Positions 10,143 through 63,400 of a DNA stretch of 64,000 bases are shown here, piece after piece. Each line of letters opens with the position of its first letter. Position 1 is the first letter of the stretch. The notes beneath the pieces were generated by a model. It was not told where the DNA came from. It saw nothing but the letters and a program-made list of their open reading frames with translations, and searched no databases. Source of the stretch: a virus; the IMG/VR virus record IMGVR_UViG_3300045988_168162, positions 64,001-128,000 of that record; one strand, given 5' to 3'. The translations under genes and the position numbers were made by a program.

Positions 10143-10484
10143 ATGGTGGAGAATAACAATATGTACTATGGGTTAGAGATCACTTGGCGAATGATAAACA
10201 AGACCATAAACAGGCCGAGTAAGGCTGTGCCTCATTGGATTTTCATTAAAGGCTATGACGCAGCGTCGGACAAAGCGTATGCCGAGCTGAACGGATATAA
10301 ATGGGAACCAAGTCCAGACAGATGGGTTTGCTCAAAATGCGGGGCGGCAACTAATGATATTTCTGCTAAGTGCTGCCCGCATTGTAATGTAGAGATGATT
10401 GGTAAGCCTGAAGTTATGTCGGAAACCATTGCAAGATTAAAAAAAGAAGTTCTTGAAGAAATGGAGGCAAAAAATGAGCTTTAA
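10143..10484 (+). CDS. zinc-ribbon protein
   Basis: CSKCG ... CPHC; the start could instead be 10161. Confidence 0.45.
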   Translation: MVENNNMYYGLEITWRMINKTINRPSKAVPHWIFIKGYDAASDKAYAELNGYKWEPSPDRWVCSKCGAATNDISAKCCPHCNVEMIGKPEVMSETIARLKKEVLEEMEAKNEL

Positions 10485-11298
10485 TGATGCCCTTGGTACT
10501 CGTATGAAAGAGTATTACGAGGCCGTTCCCAAAACTAAACTTATGCGACGTATGCCGGTAGCATTGAGAATCGACGGCAAGGCATTCCACACATTTACTC
10601 GTGGCTTTCAAAAACCTTTTGATATGATCCTGATGAAATCTATGTGGGACACCATGCGGTATCTTTGCCGGAATATCCAAGGCTGCGTGTTTGGCTATAC
10701 ACAGTCCGATGAAATCACGCTGATCCTGATTGACTACTAAACGCTTGCCACGGATGCTTGGTTCGATTACGAAGTCCAGAAGCTATGTAGCGTGTCCGCC
10801 AGCATGGCTACCATGGCATTTAATAATTTCTTTTCTGTTTGTGTTGACGATTATGGCAAAGCCAATATTGAAGACTGGTATCTTGGCGGCACAAATCGTG
10901 AGCTATCTGACAATGAACGCTCCGCTTTGAAGTACATAGAATCTTATACCAAATCATTGGCAGACGGCGCTATGTTTGATGCTCGTTGCTTCAATATCCC
11001 AAAAGAAGAAGTCTGCAATCTGATTTACTGGCGTCAGCTTGATGCGACACGCAATTCCATCCAGATGGTGGGACAAGCATATTTCTCACACAAACAGCTG
11101 GAGGGGAAGAAATGCAGTGATATTCAGGACATGCTTATGGAGCAATACAAAATCAATTGGGATAAATATACTACGCCATGTAAGCGCGGCACGGCCTGTA
11201 TTTATAAGGATGGCAAATGGGTCATCGACGCTGATATGCCTGTTCTGAAAGGTGAAGACCGCAAGTATGTTGACCAATACATTTTCGTAGGTGAGTAA
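10474..11298 (+). CDS. Thg1-like protein (tRNA-His guanylyltransferase family, 3'-5' nucleotidyltransferase) interrupted by in-frame TAA at 10738-10740
   Basis: VALRIDGKAFH and GYTQSDEITLIL catalytic carboxylate motifs; the C-terminal half has FDARCFNIP...YWRQLDATRNS. Both ORF-track pieces (10453.. and 10792..) are in the same frame and similarity continues right after the stop. Confidence 0.7.
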
Positions 11299-12997: not shown

Positions 12998-13258
12998 ATG
13001 CAAGATAACATATACATTGAACAGTTTGAACCACATGCAGCGGAGATTGCACATAAAACGCATAACAAAATGAAAGCTAAAGAACTGGATTATATATTCG
13101 AGGGTCTTATAGCATCTTTGTGCGAGAATAGGAATCCGGTTGTAAAGCCAGTTACGGTTCATACAAATGCACGTTATGTGTGGTGCGATGACCACTGGGA
13201 GAAAGTAGGGGAGATAGATGGGTTATTCAACTTTTCCGGGTGTTCAAACAATCAATAA
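12998..13258 (+). CDS. hypothetical protein
   Basis: GGAGGTGG SD. Confidence 0.45.
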   Translation: MQDNIYIEQFEPHAAEIAHKTHNKMKAKELDYIFEGLIASLCENRNPVVKPVTVHTNARYVWCDDHWEKVGEIDGLFNFSGCSNNQ

Positions 13259-13289
13259 GTGCAAAAATCCTTAAAGGAGGAGAACTACT

Positions 13290-14399
13290 TTGAAGGTATA
13301 TAAAGGCTACAAGTTCAAACTTGAGCCTACAGAGGAGCAGAAAATCAAAATCAACAAAACGCTCGGCTGCTGCCGCTTTGTGTATAACTCCATGTTGGAT
13401 AGGCGCATAAAAGTCTATACACGGCGCGGTGAGAGTATAAGCTATATTGATACGCAGAATCTACTTCCTAAGATGAAGCAGTATCTACCTTGGCTTGCCG
13501 AAGTGGACAGTCAAGCGCTCAAATATAGCTGTCGTCAATTAGACGACGCTTATAAAGGGTTCTTTAAAAGTAGAAGAGGCTTTCCAAACTTCAAACGTAA
13601 AAGGGGAGAGGAAAGCTACACAACTACCAGCGCAAAGAATATTAAGATTGATGATAAATACATTCAGCTCCCAACGCTCGGAAAAGTGCGCTATCGCAAG
13701 AGCCGCAACATCGAAGGAAAGATTTGCAAGGCAACAATTCGTCGTTCCGCAAGTGGTAAATACTATGTAAGCATTCTTTGCAAAGTAGAAGTAACACCAC
13801 TTCTTGTTAAAGATACCGTCATCGGTTTAGATGTAGGCATCAAATCTTTTGCTGTTGACAGCAATGGTAACGAGCACCCAAATCATAAATATCTTCAAAA
13901 AGCGGAAGCCAAACTAAAGCGTGAACAGAAAAAGCTGTCACGTAAAAAGAAAGGCTCTGCCAACTGGGAAAAGCAGCGCATCAAGGTAGCTCGCTGCTAT
14001 GAAAAAGTTACCAATAAACGAAAAGATACATTGCACAAGTTGTCATCTACACTAGTGAAAGAAAATCAAATCATTTGTGTAGAAGACCTTAACGTTAAGG
14101 GTATGGTTCGTAATCACAACCTCGCAAAGAGTATTTCCGATGCTGCTTGGGGAGAGTTCTTCCGCCAACTTGAATATAAGGCTAATTGGGCAGGAAGAGT
14201 TATCGTTAAAGTGCCGACCTATTATCCAAGCAGCCAGACTTGCTCTTGCTGTGGATATCAAAACAAAGAAGTCAAAAACCTCAATGTGCGGCATTGGGTC
14301 TGCCCTCAATGTGGTATATCGCACGACAGAGATAAAAATGCTGCAGAAAACATTCTGAAAAAAGGAATGGACATGCTGGCTATGTTAGCTGCCTCATAA
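13290..14399 (+). CDS. tnpB: TnpB (IS200/IS605-family OrfB, RNA-guided RuvC nuclease)
   Basis: N-terminus [11 protein letters not shown]...LGCCRFVYN; RuvC residues [31 protein letters not shown]; zinc finger CSCCG...CPQCG. Confidence 0.9.
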
Positions 14400-14555
14400 C
14401 TACAGGCGAACAGTACGGTCAGGACGACCGAATCTTAAAGTCTGCGGAGAGTGAGCCTCTATCAATGGCTGCGGCCTGCGGTAAGTTTGCTCTGTGAAGC
14501 AGAAATCCATACTTTTTTGCGGGAACGCCCGCAAAAAGTTGGAAGTCCGATGTCA
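13290..14555 (+). mobile_element. tnpB-only IS200/IS605-like element (no Y1 TnpA; left end not recognised)
   Basis: tnpB plus a right-end-like imperfect hairpin; only 31 nt separate it from the upstream ORF. Confidence 0.5.
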
Positions 14556-16354: not shown

Positions 16355-16669
16355 ATGGATTGGCAAAATGTCAGACAGGGAGGTCATTATTTGGAAAAGA
16401 AAAAAATTGAAAATCTGTACTGCTTGATTGAAGCACTGTACGATGTGAAGGATGCCTTTAAGGCAATTGTATTTTTGACTTGCGCTGTATTTATCATTTG
16501 GTATTCCTCGGTAATTGTGAGCCGGGCATTCGCTATTGCTTTGTTTGTGGTATTGCCGCTGCTGATTGGCGTGCTGTGGTTCTGTATCTACAAAGAGGCT
16601 TTTGCGGATGGCGCTCTTTCTATTGAAGAGATTGAGAAAAAAGACGAGGATAACAAGGAGGGACGCTGA
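16355..16669 (+). CDS. membrane protein
   Basis: Two hydrophobic helices; ATGA-type junction with the next gene. Confidence 0.45.
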   Translation: MDWQNVRQGGHYLEKKKIENLYCLIEALYDVKDAFKAIVFLTCAVFIIWYSSVIVSRAFAIALFVVLPLLIGVLWFCIYKEAFADGALSIEEIEKKDEDNKEGR

Positions 16670-19245
16670 TGTTTGCACCTCCACTGTACATTGTACGGAA
16701 ATTCCCGCTATCTTTTATTATCAGCAATGACTTTAATATCCAGCTTGATGAGGATGAAGAAAAGCGGTTCCAGGTTAAGCAGCAGGACAATATGCTATTT
16801 AGGCAGATCCGGCTGATGACGTATGAAACGGACAAGTATAACCGGTTTGTAGTGTTCGTAAATTGCGTTGGCGGGCAGAACAAAAAGCCTGCCATGAAGC
16901 GGCTGATCCAGCACGGGTTCAAGATTGGCAAACAGGAATTTGTGCTGAGTGAGCGAAGTGCGAGCATGGTGCGCCAGGGAATTTTGAGCTTTGTAGATAA
17001 GCGGCTGGCTAAGGAACTGGATAAACGGATCACGATGGGAATCGAGATTGATAAGACTGTATTGCAGAAGCTATATGCTTACCGTGGGCTTATGTACTCC
17101 AGTTGCCACTGTATCGAAGGATGGCTGCCCAATATTGTAATTGTCCCTGATTGCTTTTTAACTATTAAAAATCAGCACATCAATTATGTGTATGACAAGA
17201 AGATACAATTCAAGGATAAAAATACTGGCAAAGACCGTGAATGGGAACAGAAAGATATTGCCGAGACCACCAAAGATATTGAGATAAATGCTTTTGATGG
17301 TTGTGGGATTGCACATCCTAAAATCATGGAAGAGATCCGCCGCCGGATTGGCAGCGATGAGCCGATAACTAGCTTTATAGCACGTGCGCCGTATCTAAAA
17401 GGTATGATTCACCAGTTTGATTATGAGAGTTTTTTCGCAGAACGCGGCGTGCGGTTTATTACAGATATTTGGGGCGTACAGCATGACGTAAGCCCTGGGT
17501 CTGAGCCAAAGATGTTCTGCCTGGAATCTATGTATAAAGGGTTGAAATACTTTAAGAAGACCGGAACTATAGCAGACTGGGAAGAATACTGGTATCAATT
17601 TAAAAAGTACAACCATTGTATTGGTGTGGCAAAGTGGAACTTCTCGGCAGAGCTGGAACCAATGTATACCCGCGGCAATTACCAAATCTTGCAGGATCTT
17701 GATTTGCCGTTTGAAAAGTTCAAATCATTAACCGATTATACGATTGACTGGTTTGAACGGATCACTGACGGAGACCCGGTATATACCTACTGCTTTTTGG
17801 GTATGCAGGCTGACCGCCATAAAGCGTTGAATGATTATTGTGCTGCTATCCTTAAAAATCCAGAAATGATGAATGAGGATGGAGTACGAAATTACATAGT
17901 AAATCTATTAAGCAAATATCGTGATGATATGAAGTGCGGCAAAGTTTGGCTGCATGGATCGTTCTGTTTTTTGGTGCCTGACCTGATTATGCTGGCCGAG
18001 CATATTGGTGGGTTGCCATTACAAGGGGCGCTGCAGGCGGATGAATTTTATCGATTCAATCGAGAGGGCACGTTGCTTGGAGAACATTTGATTGAACGAA
18101 ACCCACATATTTGTAAAAGCGAACATGTTATCTTAAAAGGTGTAACGAACGAGGTACTGGAAAAATATTGCGGTCACCTGGTAAATACCTGCATGGTAAA
18201 TTGCCGGTCAATTGTGCCGCAGAGATTGAATGGCGCGGATTACGATGGAGATTTAGTCCTCGTATTGGATAACAAAACTATGATGGAAGGAGTTGACAGA
18301 AACGCAGCAATAACACTGGATATTGACGATAAGGTTTGCGCCCTTGTAGAAGCTGATACGGTACAGAACAAAACAGAGTGTATTATCCGCGGATTAAAAT
18401 CCCGTATTGGTGAAATCTCTAATTTTGCAAGTTCGTACCATAATAAATGCCCCAGGACAGAAGAACAACGGCAGCGGTACAATACATTCATAAATCTTTT
18501 GAGTGTCAGTAACGGAAAAGAAATTGACGCTGCAAAGACGGGTGTACATTTTAAGATACCGCGCAACATTGAAAAGTATGGCCGCCCATTGCCGTACTTT
18601 ATGAAATACGCAAGCCCCTACTACAAGCGCATGAAGAATCTATCTGCAGCGCACAGTAATATGAACCAGTTGTGCTGGTTTATCGAACGCTGGGAGAACA
18701 CGATACGCCGCCGCAGAACAAAGAAATTTGACTGGTCCATTATGTTTGATGCGGACGTAGGATACACACAGGAGCATTTCCAAGAGATTGAAGCTATCTA
18801 TCTTGAATTTTGTAAGCTATGCAAAGACTTGGCAGAGTTTGAGCGACAGTGCAAGAATTATGATAGATACCGCGAGATCCTGGCAGAGCAGGGTGTGTCC
18901 CGTGAACAGGCGCGAGAATTTGAAACGAACTGGCAATATTATTACAGCGTATACCGCAATAGATGCCAGCTTCTCGTGCCGGATCAGCATGAACTTGCCA
19001 ATATCTGTGTTGAACTTTGCTACGGCAAATACCCAAGCCGGAACAAAAAGTTTATGTGGATGATGGCGGGGAAGGGCATTGTAGAAAATATTAAACAGGT
19101 AAATATCTGCTTGCCATTGCAGTGCGATGATGGTGAGTATGAATACCTTGGCAAACGATACACACTGGCACCAATGGAGAATGATATCCAGGTAGAATAT
19201 GTTGATGCTGAACTTATTCCCGGAGGTGATGCGGATGTATTATGA
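16669..19245 (+). CDS. YonO/QDE-1-like single-subunit two-barrel RNA polymerase
   Basis: IERNPHICKSEH ... LNGADYDGDLVLV (DbDGD metal-binding loop at 18238-18252, compare NADFDGD of beta-prime and DYDGD/DLDGD of cellular RdRPs). At 858 aa it is similar in size to YonO. Confidence 0.65.
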   Translation: MFAPPLYIVRKFPLSFIISNDFNIQLDEDEEKRFQVKQQDNMLFRQIRLMTYETDKYNRFVVFVNCVGGQNKKPAMKRLIQHGFKIGKQEFVLSERSASMVRQGILSFVDKRLAKELDKRITMGIEIDKTVLQKLYAYRGLMYSSCHCIEGWLPNIVIVPDCFLTIKNQHINYVYDKKIQFKDKNTGKDREWEQKDIAETTKDIEINAFDGCGIAHPKIMEEIRRRIGSDEPITSFIARAPYLKGMIHQFDYESFFAERGVRFITDIWGVQHDVSPGSEPKMFCLESMYKGLKYFKKTGTIADWEEYWYQFKKYNHCIGVAKWNFSAELEPMYTRGNYQILQDLDLPFEKFKSLTDYTIDWFERITDGDPVYTYCFLGMQADRHKALNDYCAAILKNPEMMNEDGVRNYIVNLLSKYRDDMKCGKVWLHGSFCFLVPDLIMLAEHIGGLPLQGALQADEFYRFNREGTLLGEHLIERNPHICKSEHVILKGVTNEVLEKYCGHLVNTCMVNCRSIVPQRLNGADYDGDLVLVLDNKTMMEGVDRNAAITLDIDDKVCALVEADTVQNKTECIIRGLKSRIGEISNFASSYHNKCPRTEEQRQRYNTFINLLSVSNGKEIDAAKTGVHFKIPRNIEKYGRPLPYFMKYASPYYKRMKNLSAAHSNMNQLCWFIERWENTIRRRRTKKFDWSIMFDADVGYTQEHFQEIEAIYLEFCKLCKDLAEFERQCKNYDRYREILAEQGVSREQAREFETNWQYYYSVYRNRCQLLVPDQHELANICVELCYGKYPSRNKKFMWMMAGKGIVENIKQVNICLPLQCDDGEYEYLGKRYTLAPMENDIQVEYVDAELIPGGDADVL

Positions 19246-32288: not shown

Positions 32289-33073
32289 AAGTGCCTTATT
32301 TTGAACTACTGAATCCGATTGGTTTTATGGTAGATGGGATTGGACGAGTACATTCGCCAAAATTGCGTACCATTTGCAAACGCGGCTATAAAAATTACCA
32401 GTATGCGTTGACGCTTTTGCTTATGACCCCGCATGATTTTTTTGCGGGGATTGCTGCGGCACTACATGAGGAAAAGAACCCCTATGATGAATTACCGCAA
32501 GAGCAGAAGGACGCGCTGCATATCTTTGATTTACTTACTGCAGACGAACAGACCCAGGGCGAGATAGTAACCGCCTTGGGCTTTTTTATTGATGGTACGA
32601 TCACATTTGAGCCGAGCCACCGCTGCTTTTTAGTAAATGCGGTGCAGGACGAAACAGGGGCACTAGCAGTGGACGGCATGATCAATGCAGAGAATTGGAC
32701 GTTGGTGTGCGATGTATGCCTGCAATGTGCCTATTTAGACCCGCCCAAAGATAAACAGGCGCACAAATACCGGGATGAAAAGACACGCAAAAAGTTTGAA
32801 GAGTTCTACCGCAAGAAAGCGGAGTACGAGAAAAACAAACGCGGCGGGAAAAAGGCCGACCCTGATTATGAATTGGCCAACATCATCTCGGCACTGGCTA
32901 CCTACCATGACAGCCTGAACATGGCAAATATCTGGAACCTGACGGTGTACCAAGTACATGACACCTTCAACCGCCAGAGAATGAAACAACAGATAGATAT
33001 TACTGACTTTAACTACTCGGTTTGGGGCGGAAAAGACCACCAGGCCGATTTGTGGTTTAAAAAACTGACTTAA
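32285..33073 (+). CDS. structural hypothetical protein
   Basis: Position; ATGA overlap. Confidence 0.3.
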   Translation: MKVPYFELLNPIGFMVDGIGRVHSPKLRTICKRGYKNYQYALTLLLMTPHDFFAGIAAALHEEKNPYDELPQEQKDALHIFDLLTADEQTQGEIVTALGFFIDGTITFEPSHRCFLVNAVQDETGALAVDGMINAENWTLVCDVCLQCAYLDPPKDKQAHKYRDEKTRKKFEEFYRKKAEYEKNKRGGKKADPDYELANIISALATYHDSLNMANIWNLTVYQVHDTFNRQRMKQQIDITDFNYSVWGGKDHQADLWFKKLT

Positions 33074-56846: not shown

Positions 56847-57377
56847 ATGGGAATTAAATTTAAAAGACAAGGTGGCGGCTCGACCAACTATAACTCAGCC
56901 AAAGCGCCTACAAGTTTGAATTATGGCGAGCCTGCCGTTGACAGTGAAGGCCGCATTTATGTTGGCAATGGACAGCGCCAGGTAGTGAGCCGCGTAAAAA
57001 TTGCCGACAGCTGTACCAATGCGACCAGTGCTACGACTGCGGTGCGAGCCACGAATGCCAGTAATGCCGACCGGGCAAAATTCGATTTGCCGCTGTACCA
57101 TGCTTATCTTTCGGCGTCCAGCTGGAGCAATTATGGGAGTTATTATACACAGTCTCCCAGTTGTTACGCAGAGAGCGGCGGTCCTAGTATGACATCCGAC
57201 ATGCAGTTGAGCCCGCCTATGACGCAGGGCACAGGGGTGCAATCCACAGACGAATCGCTAATGGAAACGCTAAACATTATCAATGCGGGAACGACTACGC
57301 CCGGTTACGGAAGAATTACCGTAAAGGTTTGGGAAAAACCGGAGACAGACATTACTGTGTATTATTACGCACGATAA
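56847..57377 (+). CDS. hypothetical tail protein
   Basis: GGGGAGAAG SD. Confidence 0.4.
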   Translation: MGIKFKRQGGGSTNYNSAKAPTSLNYGEPAVDSEGRIYVGNGQRQVVSRVKIADSCTNATSATTAVRATNASNADRAKFDLPLYHAYLSASSWSNYGSYYTQSPSCYAESGGPSMTSDMQLSPPMTQGTGVQSTDESLMETLNIINAGTTTPGYGRITVKVWEKPETDITVYYYAR

Positions 57378-57404
57378 ACTGACAAAATAGGAGGTGAAGC
57401 TAAA

Positions 57405-60400
57405 TTGGCAATATCCTTTGAAGAATCCAGAAAGAAATTTGAGAGCGCAATAGCGAACGAAGCTGCCGAACCGGCAATGCTTGCCTCCTTTGAGGAAGTA
57501 GAAGCAGTGGCAGCGGAACCTGTTATGCAGGCCGTTGTTGGAGACGATTTCACCCGCAGCGACAAATATAAATGGTATGACCAGTATGAGGACAGTGCAT
57601 ACTCGACCATTGATAAGCTGAAAAACATCAAGATGGACGACAACCAGATCAACCTGACACAGGAAGATAACAGCCAGTTTATCCCGTTTGAGATGCCGCG
57701 CTACTATGATGGCGTTGACCTGATGCAGATGCTGATCCAGGTACATTATGTTAACAAGGAAAACCAGGACGGCATTGCCACGCCGGTAAATGTTACATAC
57801 AGTGTGGACAAGATCCACTTTAACTGGTTGGTCGACAAGAACGTGACCAATGTTGAGGGTGAAGTCGATTTTGAAATCACGGCTACCGGTTCTAACGAAA
57901 AGAACGAATCTTATCTGTGGAAGAGCCGCCCGAATGGCAAGCTGAATATTTTGAAGTCCTTGGCCGGCAATGGTGTGATTAAGCCGAGCGACGACTGGTA
58001 CACCGGTTTTGTGCAGCTAATGGACGAGAAGGTTTCGGAAGCTACCAAACAGGCACAGGCTGCTGCCCAGAGTGCCACCGAGGCCAAGACGGCTGTTGCA
58101 AATGTGGACAGCAAGATTTCCAGCGCTGCTGCCGGTATCAAGCATGAGCTGCAGGCCGACCTGGATGCGAACTATGCCAAGAAAACAGAGCTTGACACGC
58201 TGAAAAACAAGGTGGATAACCTGAATGGCCTGGCCGATTTTGATGTGACCTTTAACAATGACACGAAGGAAATGACTTTCCTGAATGGCAGTGAGGAAAT
58301 TAAAAAGGTCGCGATCGACACCAGCCCTTCCGCTGAATGGGTGACTGCTTACGGCAAGACAGTAGACAGCAAAGTTTCTGCCGCCGTTACGCCTGTGCAG
58401 ACGGAGTTGACCGAGTACAAGACCGCCAATGACAAGGCTGTAAAGGATTTGCAGGACAGTGTTGGCAATCTGCCGGAGACGCTGAAAACTTCTTATTATA
58501 ATAAGGAAGCCACTGATAAGCTGCTGAAGGAAAAGGCGGATGCCTCTGTTATTGACGGTATTCGCAACGATGTTACGCAGGCAAAGAATAATGTAGCTGA
58601 TATGCAGGGCACGGTGGACAGCCTGAATACTGCTGTTGGCGAAATTCAGGGCAAGCTGGATGACATTGGCAAGAATGCCGGGCATGAGTATGACATTACC
58701 TACGAGGACAGTAAACTGACACTTATGGAGGATGGCACGCCGAAGACGCAGGTGACGATTGTTGGCGGTGGTGGCGGTGGCCCTGCTGCGGGCAGCACGA
58801 TTACGATCGAGCGTATCGGCGAGTCTGCAATTACGGCTGTTGCCGGTGACCCTGTTGTGGTCAAGTTCCGGTTCACGAGTGTGGACAGTGCGGGCGATGA
58901 TACAGGCAATGCGACAGGCACATGGTATGTTGGCAATACAAAGGTTGCTACCCAGACCATTATGCAGGGCGAAAACAGCTTTGACATCACGAAGTATCTG
59001 CACAGCGGTGAGAACCAGATCCGTTTGACAGTTGTAGACAGCATGGATACGACAGGTTCCAAGAAGTGGAGTGCCAATGTCGTTGATTTCTATCTGGAAT
59101 CCACCTTTGATGACAGCCTTTTCTATAGTGGCGAGGTCACGGTGCGCTATACACCGTATGGCAGCGTTGAGAAGAAGATTGATTTTGCGCTGGACGGTAA
59201 GTCGATTGGTGGCACGACTACCAGTGTGACTGGCCGACAGATGACCTATTCTATTCCTGTGCAGAAGCACGGCAGTCACCTGTTGGAAATCAGCATGACG
59301 GCGGAGATCAACAGCAAGACCGTTAAGTCCAATGTCATCAAGAAGGACATTATGTGGGTGGCTGAGGGCGAGACTGCACCCATTATCAGCTGTGCTGTGA
59401 GAGATTACGAGACGAAACAGTACAACAAGGTGTCCATTGAGTACACCGTATACGACCCTGCGTCCAGCACGAGCACTGTAAAGCTGGCTGTGGACGGCGT
59501 GACCGAGTCTACCCTGACTGTTGGGCGCACAAAGCAGATCTGGAGCTTTAAGAGCGCGAACAAGGGCAAGCATACGCTGACGATCACTTGCGGCGAGACC
59601 GTAAAGACGATCAGTGTGAATGTGGTTGACCTTGGCGTTGTAATCGAGCCTGTTACTACGAACCTAGCCTTTGATTTTAACCCAAGCGGTAAGACCAACG
59701 CCAGTGCAGACCGGCTTTGGACCGATGGCCAGACTAGCCTGAGTGTAAGCGATAACTTTGACTGGAGCAATGGCGGCTACCAGATCGACAGTGACGGCGA
59801 TACCTATTTCTGCGTAAAAGCGGGCACCAAAGCCACGATCGATTATAAGCTTTTTGCCGATGACGCGAAGAAACTTGGCAAGAACTTTAAGATGATTTTT
59901 AAGACCACCAACGTGCGGGACTATAATGCTACGGCGCTGACTTGCCTGAACGGTGGTATTGGCCTGAATGTGCAGGCCCAGAAAGTTGCACTGACCAGTG
60001 AGCAGAACAGTATTGAACTGCCCACATGCGAAGACGACTTTATGGAATTTGAGCTGAATATTCTGCCGGATAGCCAGTACCGCGAGATGGTGCTGTGGCT
60101 GGATGGCATCCCATGCCGTGTACAGCTGTATGAATCCAGTGACAGCTTTACGCAGGCAAACCCGGTTGGCATCACGATTGGTTCTGACGATTGCGATGTG
60201 TTGATATATCGCATGAAGAGCTATATGATGAACCTGACTGACGATGAGATCCTGGACAACTTTATTGCAGACGCCAAGAACGCTGACGAGATGATCGAGC
60301 GGTACAACCGCAACAACATCACGGATGCAAGCGGTGAGCTGAACCCGGACATTCTGGCGGAGCGCTGCCCCGACCTGCGTGTTATCAAGATCAGTGCTCC

Positions 60401-63400
60401 TACCTTTACTACCGGTAAGAAAAACGAAGTTGCAAACACTGTTATCCAGCAGATCTACAAGAACGGACGCGCCGTTGAGGACAACTGGACGGCCAACGGT
60501 TCCCACAAGGGACAGGGCACAAGCTCTGACCACTATGGCGAATCTGCGCGTAACATCGACATTAACTGTAAGGGCGGCTTTACCTTTGGCGATGAAAGCA
60601 CCGGCTCTGTGTATGCGCTGACGGAAAACAGTGTGGCGGAGAATTACTTTAACATTAAGGTCAATGTTGCATCGTCTGAAAATGCAAACAACGCACTGCT
60701 GGCAGATGATTTCAACGAGTTTAACCCGTACATTCGACAGGCACGCAAGGATAACCCGAAGGTGCGCGACACGATGGCTTTCTACCCGTGTGTTGTTTTT
60801 GTGCAGGAGACGGATATTGAGAACAGCACCGTGTTCCATGACGGTAAGTGGCATTTCTATGCCTGCGGTGACATCGGCAATTCTAAGAAAAACAGCAATA
60901 CAATGGGTATGGACCCGGATAATCATAAGGAAGTTATCATCGAGATTGACAACAATACCGATGAGCAGACTCGATTCCTGAGCGGCGATTTCTCGCAGGA
61001 GACTTGGGACGGTGACCACAGCTTTGAGTTCCGCTACATCAATAAGGCTTGCACCGAAGAGGAAGTACAGGCTGCGAAGGATGCGTGGATTCGCGTGCAG
61101 AACTGGGTCGTGAATGCGAGTGACGAGGAGTTTAAGGCGCACTTTGAGGACTATTTTGTCATGGACTCTGCGCTGTATCACTACTTGTTTACAGAGCGCC
61201 ACACCATGGTCGATAACCGTGCAAAGAATGTGTTCCCGCATACGAGTGACCTTATCCATTGGGATTTCTGCTTTGACTACGACAACGATACCGCGCAGGG
61301 CAACGACAACGAGGGCGGACTGACCTTGAGTTACGGCTACGAGGATACGGACACCATCGGCACTAAGAGCGTGTTCAATGCCAGCGATTCCAAGCTGTGG
61401 TGTAAGATCCGCGACTTGTTCCCTGACAAGCTGGCGGCTATGTTCCGTGACCGTGAAAACGCATTGGCATGGAGTGCATCCCGTATCCTGAAGAAATTTG
61501 AGGATTATCAGAATGTAAAGCCGGAGCGCCTGTGGGTCATGGATATGCGGCGCAAATATTTCCGCACTTACGAGGAAAATGGTACGACCAGCTATCTGCC
61601 CATGATGCACGGCAACAAGCGCCATCAGCGCCGTCAGTTCCAGAAGTATCAGGAAAAGTATATGGCCTCCAAGTACAGCGGCAGTGCTGCAACCAGCGAT
61701 GATATGACGATTCGCGGTTATACGCCTGTGAACTGGACCGGTGTGAAGCCTGACGGTACATTCCATATCGTGCCGTATGCCGATACTTATGTGAGTGTGT
61801 TGTATGGCTCTAACCCTGTGAAGGTGCGCGGCAAACGTGGCCAGACCTATGAGATCAAGTGCCCGATTGCAGCCATGAACGATACCGAGGTCTATGTTTA
61901 TAATGCAAGCCTGATCCGCAGCATTGGTGATATTTCCGGTTTCTACCCCGGCTATGTTGACTTTAGCCATGGAGTGAAGCTAACTGACCTGCAGATTGGC
62001 TCCGGCGTGGAAGGCTACAGCAATACGAACTTGACCGACTTTGCAGTTGGTAACAATACGCTGCTGGAGCACCTGAACCTGCAGAATGTGCCGAAGCTGC
62101 AAAAATCTATCAGCCTGGCGGGTTGTACGAATCTGACCGAGTTCCTGGCAGATGGCAGCGGTATCACCGGCGTTGTGTTTGCTATGGGCGGCAAGATTAA
62201 GAAAGCTACGCTGCCCGGCATTGCAAGCCTGACGGCCAAGAACCTGAATTACCTTACGGATTTGACGATCAGTGACTACAGCAAGATCACAACTTTGGTG
62301 GCCGAGAACTGCCCGACCATTGACCTGGTAGAGATGCTGGGTAAATGCACCGGCCTGAACCGTGTGCGCATTACCGGCGTGGATTGGCACCTGGAGAATA
62401 CCAGCCTGCTGAATAAGTTGCTGGCTATGACCGGCCTGGATGAGAACGGCTACAATGCTGAACATTCTGTACTGGCCGGTAAGATCAATGTGCCTGTGCT
62501 GCGTGAAAAGGAACTGGAGATCTTTAACGAGCAGTGGCCTGACCTAAAGCTGACCTATAACACGCTGATCAATACTTTTGCATGGACTTTTGTGAACAAG
62601 GACGGTAAGGTTCTGGATGTCCAGTACGTGGACAAGGGCGGCAAAGCTGTTGACCCTGTGACCCGTGCGGACAATCCTATCCCGACACCTACCTTGGAAA
62701 GCACCATCAGCACTGATTTTACTTTTAGCGGCTGGGATACTGAGTTTACGCCTGCCTTTAGCAATATGACCGTTACGGCTGTGTATACCGAGAGCGTGCG
62801 CAAGTACACTGTGCGTTACATGAACCGTGGCATTGTGATGCAGAGCACTGTGGCCCCGTATGGCACGACCGTGCTGTATACCGGCGAGACACCGACCTAT
62901 ACCGGTGAGGAAAGCGCTTATAAATTCTACTTTTTCAGCGGCTGGGATAAAGGCGGCTATGTGACCGGCGACAAGGACATCAATGCCGTATATGACAGTT
63001 TTGAATACACGAGCGGATGCTTTGACGGCAAGGAAATTGGCGACATGAAGCCTGTGGAGATCTATGCTATGACGAAAGTTGGTGTAGAATCCAGCGTTGT
63101 TACGGATAAAGACCAGGTACAGATCACCTTTGGCTCTGACTTTAGCTACGACGACATCAAGGAAAATGTGCTTGTGAAGAGTCCGATTGAGTTTACGGGC
63201 AAGAATTACCTGGATACTGGTGTGAAGCTGCTGGATGAAGACCGGGATTTTGTGCTGGCAATAGATTATATGATGGCGGCTACTACTACAGCGAACTCTG
63301 TACTGGCACAGTGCTACCAGCAGAATGGCATGAATGGTTTCCGGCTGTGGTACAACAATGGTGTTAAAGCAGCCTGGGGCACCAGTTCCAGCAAAGAAAG

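Follow-up and report, generated by a model that had tools for sequence, protein, structure and literature searches.

Probable recent nonsense allele of a Thg1-like gene in a gut phage, and a candidate +1 frameshift site in its endonuclease-linked relatives

The Thg1-like gene

The window, by which we mean the whole 64,000-nucleotide stretch of viral DNA that was analysed, contains at positions 10474-11298 a Thg1-like gene which, on translation, forms a single frame of 274 codons with one internal TAA at 10738-10740. This TAA shares its frame with the ATG at 10474 and with the terminal TAA at 11296-11298, and the text around it reads LILIDY-stop-TLATDAWFDYEVQKLCSVSASMAT. A Thg1-like gene broken by a single in-frame TAA had been proposed in the first-pass annotation, and this is confirmed both by the translation, in which all of the motifs that it quoted (RIDGKAFH, QSDEITL, FDARCFNIP and YWRQLDATRNS) are found, and by a Pfam match that runs across the stop. 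The features of the locus are as follows.

10463-10467, plus strand: ribosome binding site GGAGG, 6 nt 5' of the ATG, read from the sequence
10474-10737, plus strand: Thg1-like codons 1-88 (translation, Pfam Thg1, alignment to BtTLP 4KGK)
10573-10575, plus strand: D34, conserved carboxylate in codons 1-88
10708-10710, plus strand: D79, conserved carboxylate in codons 1-88
10711-10713, plus strand: E80, conserved carboxylate in codons 1-88
10738-10740, plus strand: premature TAA at codon 89; CAA (Gln) in relatives, one C-to-T transition at 10738
10741-11298, plus strand: codons 90-274 and the natural TAA, frame unchanged and family-like throughout
10984-10986, plus strand: R171, counterpart of BtTLP R131, 3' of the premature stop

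With an X in the place of the stop, the product of the window gene matches Pfam PF04446 (Thg1) over residues 10-176, that is across the stop, at 96.7 bits (cut-off 29.2; E=1.3e-27). The best match of solved structure is the Thg1-like protein of Bacillus thuringiensis, BtTLP (4KGK/4KGM; E=6.9e-57), while the eukaryotic Thg1 structures 3OTB, 7CV1 and 3WBZ match more weakly, with E between 1e-5 and 1e-6. In BtTLP the conserved carboxylates are D30, D75 and E76, and R28 and R131 contact the incoming GTP, R131 touching the triphosphate in the transfer site (PMC3701042). D30, D75, E76, R28 and R131 align with D34, D79, E80, R32 and R171 of the window gene, respectively, and D34, D79 and E80 are invariant across 30 aligned sequences. 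Because the match to BtTLP (4KGK) is far stronger than that to eukaryotic Thg1, and because the key residues of BtTLP align, sequence comparison places the window gene with the bacterial-type TLPs, as opposed to eukaryotic Thg1. The three carboxylates and the equivalents of R28 and R131 are thus common to both proteins; unlike BtTLP, however, the phage protein has an insertion of approximately 45 residues between both conserved blocks, is encoded by a phage and, in the window, is cut short at codon 89. Bacterial TLPs are reported to repair 5'-truncated tRNAs in vitro (PMC3061083).

A Thg1/TLP gene in a phage is already known and is not new in itself. The family is found by tblastn in 160 phage records, many of them annotated as tRNA-His guanylyltransferase, and relatives in a large protein database number in the thousands, so that the earlier view of a phage TLP as being of interest in its own right was overstated. 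The annotated Thg1-family genes of Fusobacterium phage Fnu1 and of Bacillus phages G, FADO and PK-3 align over their full length at 40-46% identity, but they are uninterrupted whereas the window gene is interrupted, and the window's phage differs from them in being, as far as its gene content indicates, an uncultured SPbeta-like gut phage. No DNA-level match of the locus was found by megablast in 50,697 phage records. That the TLP counters host tRNA-targeting defences, as the first-pass annotation proposed, is speculation, and we found no paper addressing such a role.

Genomic setting

Related contigs are approximately 90-175 kb in length, originate from human gut metagenomes and encode an integrase, a radical-SAM gene, a YonO-type RNA polymerase of the RdRP fold and homologues of YonJ and YonG; on the strength of these genes we regard the window's phage as SPbeta-like. 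Distant homologues sit mainly in genomes of Lachnospiraceae and other Clostridia. The window itself is a mosaic, 97-99.9% identical to the related contigs.

Several other features of the window were noted. A 1.3-kb insertion at 13221-14548, missing from all 12 of the related loci compared, encodes a TnpB-type protein of 369 amino acids (ORF 13290-14399, plus strand; Pfam OrfB_IS605, Cas12f1-like TNB and HTH_OrfB_IS605), and it alters the 3' end of a small upstream gene, which is 86 amino acids long here and 76 in relatives. At 16669-19245 (plus strand) lies an intact YonO-like RNA polymerase of 858 amino acids with an RdRP fold (Pfam RdRP, E=1.8e-11). This gene is split into ORFs of 547 and 321 amino acids in several relatives, where extra DNA is found at the equivalent of window 18240/18241; in some the extra DNA carries an ORF of 163 or 362 amino acids, and it is possibly a mobile element inserted there, either an intron or an endonuclease. 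Finally, a giant gene on the plus strand (57375-64000, frame 3) is open for more than 2,200 codons and runs past the end of the window.

The stop compared with the intact allele

Once the gene was aligned with its relatives, a check that the first-pass annotation had suggested, the column of the stop was found to hold Q in all 29 close homologues and D in BtTLP, and across the wider set of relatives the residues at column 89 are Q, K (in the group of locus L071) and D. In a relative 97% identical to the window the codons read TAC-CAA-ACG, in the window TAC-TAA-ACG. Moreover, an intact protein on record, P0139, is identical at every residue to the conceptual product of the window gene with Q89, and it is widespread, occurring in many samples (73 contigs, 132 index blocks). 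When the 825-nt gene was compared with ten intact-allele loci from different samples, the sole difference in nine was at gene position 265 (C in the intact allele, T in the window), while the tenth had one further difference from the window gene. Since nine of the ten differ at position 265 only, the stop is a single C-to-T change on an otherwise untouched common allele, and no second lesion or further decay has accumulated. The window gene thus carries one disabling change relative to an otherwise identical intact allele, as a recent nonsense allele should.

We therefore propose that the bacterial-type TLP, a 3'-5' nucleotidyltransferase, is an accessory gene of an SPbeta-like phage of gut Firmicutes, in which one recent C-to-T transition made Gln89 (CAA) an ochre stop (TAA). 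Translation would then end after 88 residues, and the allele would be a rare variant that has lost the function of a widespread intact gene to which it is otherwise identical. It would be tolerated because the gene may be dispensable for propagation of the phage. We consider a recent nonsense allele (CAA to TAA, Gln89) of a known accessory phage gene to be the probable explanation of the interrupted frame. The first-pass annotation had left a fresh pseudogene, an assembly error and readthrough side by side; the first of these is favoured here, the second is improbable and the third is argued against by the evidence set out below.

Consequences for the protein and dispensability of the gene

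The 88-residue product retains D34, D79 and E80 but ends inside the Pfam catalytic domain, and is without R171 (the equivalent of BtTLP R131) and the entire C-terminal half. It would be expected to be inactive, because the remainder of the catalytic domain is missing along with all of the C-terminal half. Any C-terminal piece would, in turn, be without all three carboxylates. An uninterrupted polypeptide that includes the C-terminal half, with its Thg1C region, is encoded in 132 of 149 related loci but not in the window, which, judged by its reading frame, appears to hold a disrupted allele of a family member and not a working one.

As most relatives (132 of the 149 loci screened have an intact full-length copy) keep the gene, it is normally under purifying selection. 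Losses do occur, however. In locus L071 (IMGVR_UViG_3300045988_125846), the TLP of which is approximately 59% identical to that of the window, a TAG at 2549-2551 stands where close relatives have Gln17, giving a second single-nonsense allele. We considered whether this TAG could reflect genetic code 15 and rejected it, since neighbouring genes terminate in TAG. Among more distant relatives plain lesions are seen in L146 (a stop and a frameshift) and L147 (a frameshift). The first-pass annotation held that multiple disabling mutations in relatives would mark a plain pseudogene; these three loci bear that out in part only, and we count their plain lesions in favour of a nonsense allele in the window. 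The pattern suggests a gene that is usually kept and occasionally lost, as for an accessory phage gene. Alleles of 218 amino acids in the window's own lineage (L004-L011) were at one stage taken as simple pseudogenes showing dispensability, and were dropped as clean evidence after a conserved CTT-N-GAC junction was found in them, to which we return below.

Reality of the variant base

It is conceivable that the sample is mostly CAA and that the T at 10738 stems from a sequencing error or from a minority variant picked by the assembler. The difference is of one base, C-to-T is the commonest kind of damage or error, and the intact allele is far commoner; moreover, exact 38-nt scans of IMG/VR and of JGI metagenome contigs found no TAA allele, while the control scan for the CAA allele gave matches in IMG/VR. 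Neither allele was found by exact scan of GTDB representative genomes. Against this, the fragments that the stop creates, of 88 and of 164/161 amino acids, are recorded in NCBI nr, UniRef, JGI, ENA and Logan (longest contig 146,780 bp), and Logan assembles runs itself. As fragments are recorded in several archives, the stop is present in more than one assembly, although several of these records may all come from one sample. At ordinary coverage consensus errors are also rare.

L002 and L003, two short contigs that Logan assembled from other runs (SRR25729084 and SRR31366887, respectively), end at window 10737, the base before the variant. The fragment look-up was by exact sequence and hence selects contigs ending at that base; as a control, ten neighbouring truncation lengths (83-87 and 89-93 amino acids) were queried, and none of the ten is on record. 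A contig break at exactly the variant base in two other samples fits a real polymorphism and suggests a branch of the assembly graph at this base, the suggestion extending to the branch and not to T as the base on its other arm. Contig L002 differs from the window by 4 mismatches and from L012, a locus with the CAA allele, by 1, so that T, if it occurs in that sample, would be on a background slightly different from that of the window. No contigs starting just past the variant were found by the look-up for right-hand fragments, which is uninformative, and the 164-residue downstream ORF is not on record in the contig index, though the cluster table lists it. On balance we infer that the variant is real and regard a consensus or assembly artefact as improbable, and as less likely than a recent nonsense allele.

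Programmed decoding, leaky readthrough and a two-piece enzyme

Another reading is that the TAA is a leaky stop of the 'savior' type, kept because it lowers the dosage of TLP sharply without abolishing it; in a softer version the knockout is positively selected, for instance because TLP activity may be costly or may be sensed by a defence in some hosts. Since column 89 tolerates Q, K and D, rare near-cognate readthrough would give an active enzyme, though only at the basal error level. We hold either version to be very unlikely. Were the leaky stop true, it would parallel the CUU-UGA-C +1 site of the relatives described below, and the gene family would be a recurrent target of translational recoding.

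We give still less weight to programmed decoding of the TAA, whether by a suppressor tRNA, by reassignment of TAA to Gln or by context-dependent readthrough, with a full-length TLP as its product, and think it highly improbable. It is true that the stop sits in the place of a glutamine, the residue expected from an ochre suppressor derived from a Gln tRNA, that an active enzyme would result from near-cognate readthrough in so tolerant a column, and that recoding of another kind appears to operate in relatives of the gene. However, glutamine codons are those that C-to-T transitions turn into stops, so that the replacement of Gln is not significant. Stop-codon recoding is also known in gut phages, but the survey in question describes the recoding of TAG and TGA, with TAA as the preferred terminator in close relatives of the recoded phages (10.1101/2021.08.26.457843). 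The recoded phages, which read TAG as Gln (code 15) or TGA as Trp (code 4), are like the window in having a stop at a Gln of their relatives, yet they have many genes with in-frame stops, avoid the recoded codon as a terminator and commonly carry suppressor tRNAs (10.1101/2021.08.26.457843), whereas in the window the single such stop is TAA, itself the main terminator there, and the tRNA search was negative.

Specifically, TAA ends 30 of 50 plus-strand ORFs of the window by a crude ORF call, and is thus the commonest terminator. Scanning for single stops with at least 70 open codons on either side revealed no other gene-splitting stop in the window, and the earlier statement that the window's genes have no other in-frame stop holds as far as this flanked-stop scan reaches. 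The remaining plus-strand cases are either pairs of adjacent genes, the second of which has its start codon within a few bases of the stop, or antisense shadows of a long gene on the plus strand. Two candidates for wider recoding were considered and rejected: the TAA at 33071 is a normal gene end with the start codon of its neighbour close by, and the TAG-separated long ORFs on the minus strand at 58-63.6 kb are the antisense shadow of the plus-strand frame from 57375. Genome-wide recoding of TAA or TAG was rejected on the same grounds, and a TAA that recurs in frame and is shunned as a terminator, as reassignment entails, was not seen.

Recoding signals were likewise absent. There are no tRNA genes in 14 related loci or within the window, so the suppressor tRNA raised in the first-pass annotation is not seen in the part searched, which covers 64 kb of a phage contig of approximately 147 kb. 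There are no Rfam matches either, and a 100-nt segment from 10732 that takes in the stop is no more stably folded than shuffled sequence (z=-1.08). The flanks of the TAA are identical to those of the CAA alleles, and therefore no special context has evolved. Conservation of the stop among diverged relatives, a feature of functional readthrough, is also lacking, with Q in 29 of 29 close homologues and a stop in column 89 in none of 149 related loci. Taken with the foregoing, we consider programmed readthrough unlikely.

The weakest alternative, an active TLP assembled from the 88-residue N-terminal piece and a C-terminal piece translated from a start of its own, has next to no probability, for although both halves are open and unmutated and gene callers report a downstream ORF of 161 or 164 amino acids, the earliest in-frame starts past the stop (GTG 10792 and ATG 10804) are 17 and 21 codons on and have no obvious ribosome binding site on inspection of the sequence, the break falls inside the Pfam catalytic domain, the split is found in no relative, and the apparent integrity of the two halves reflects how recent the mutation is.

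A frame break in endonuclease-linked relatives

The window itself has neither a homing endonuclease nor a frame break at this gene; both are found in relatives only. In the 218-residue alleles of the window's own lineage (P0140; L004-L011), a free-standing homing endonuclease gene of the LAGLIDADG_2 type is inserted just upstream, Thg1 codons 1-33 are present as a divergent copy, and one extra base lies between CTT (Leu33) and GAC (the catalytic Asp34). The same break, as CTT-T-GAC, occurs in the lineage of L128, the protein of which is 60% identical to that of the window, together with a homologous endonuclease and a different 5' segment. Loci with the broken junction are the following.

L004-L011 and L151 (L004 2928-2934)
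L128 (2576-2582)
L150, L152-L158, L162 and L165-L168

With the loci added by pattern scans of IMG/VR and JGI metagenomes, there are at least 10 distinct 5' variants. Each has a strong ribosome binding site and an ATG, followed by an open frame of 29-36 codons ending in P-V-x-x-R-L, and at the break the heptamer is CTT-TGA-C/T, or CTT-CGA-C in the L004 group, which is the window's own lineage. Where the contig allows, the ORF in the +1 frame is complete (226-256 amino acids) to the normal C-terminus of the family. The pooled pN/pS of the 5' segment is 0.48 in its own frame as against 1.06 and 1.18 in the control frames, and it contains no in-frame stops, while the other frames have 1-7 per variant; the short 5' ORF is under purifying selection. 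The endonuclease lies directly upstream in 19 of the 23 frame-broken loci for which 1 kb or more of upstream sequence is available, compared to none of 61 in-frame CGN-CTT-GAY loci, and the linked endonucleases have diverged to approximately 50% identity.

The codon before the extra base is CTT in 17 of 17 distinct broken junctions, most of which were found with patterns that require CTT; as a background, codon 33 is CTT in only 5 of the 84 in-frame junctions among loci gathered through protein similarity. The broken lineages found without that requirement (the L004 group, L128 and L150) have CTT in three of three, although the test of CTT exclusivity is of low power, with one frame-broken allele among the matches listed for the unconstrained scan. 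Selection on the 5' segment, the linkage to the endonuclease and the CTT before the extra base together argue that the frame break is kept as a recoding site, as opposed to being a scar.

The sequence CUU UGA C is the heptamer of the prfB (RF2) +1 frameshift. No Shine-Dalgarno-like stimulator is visible upstream of it in these loci. In its arrangement, CTT-TGA-C looks like an endonuclease-linked candidate for a +1 frameshift site of the prfB type. We propose that the extra base may lie in the target site of the endonuclease, where it could shield the endonuclease's own genome from cleavage, and that +1 frameshifting at CUU-UGA would keep the TLP expressed. There is a precedent in mobA/gene 60 of phage T4, where a translationally bypassed insert may protect its gene from being cut by the nuclease through which the adjacent homing endonuclease is spread (PMC5009743). 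Both systems have an insert in the gene beside a homing endonuclease; however, the insert of the relatives is one base and that of T4 gene 60 is 50 nt, and a +1 shift is proposed for the former whereas the latter uses a hop. Our literature search turned up no report of frameshifting in a Thg1-like gene.

Implications

For annotation, both ORFs of the window gene belong under one label, that of a disrupted Thg1-like gene. The nonsense allele matters little in itself, and mainly shows that an accessory gene can be lost. The endonuclease-linked CTT-TGA-C site of the relatives is the more useful result and, if it is a true +1 site that protects an endonuclease target, would provide a second case in nature of the principle known from T4 mobA/gene 60.
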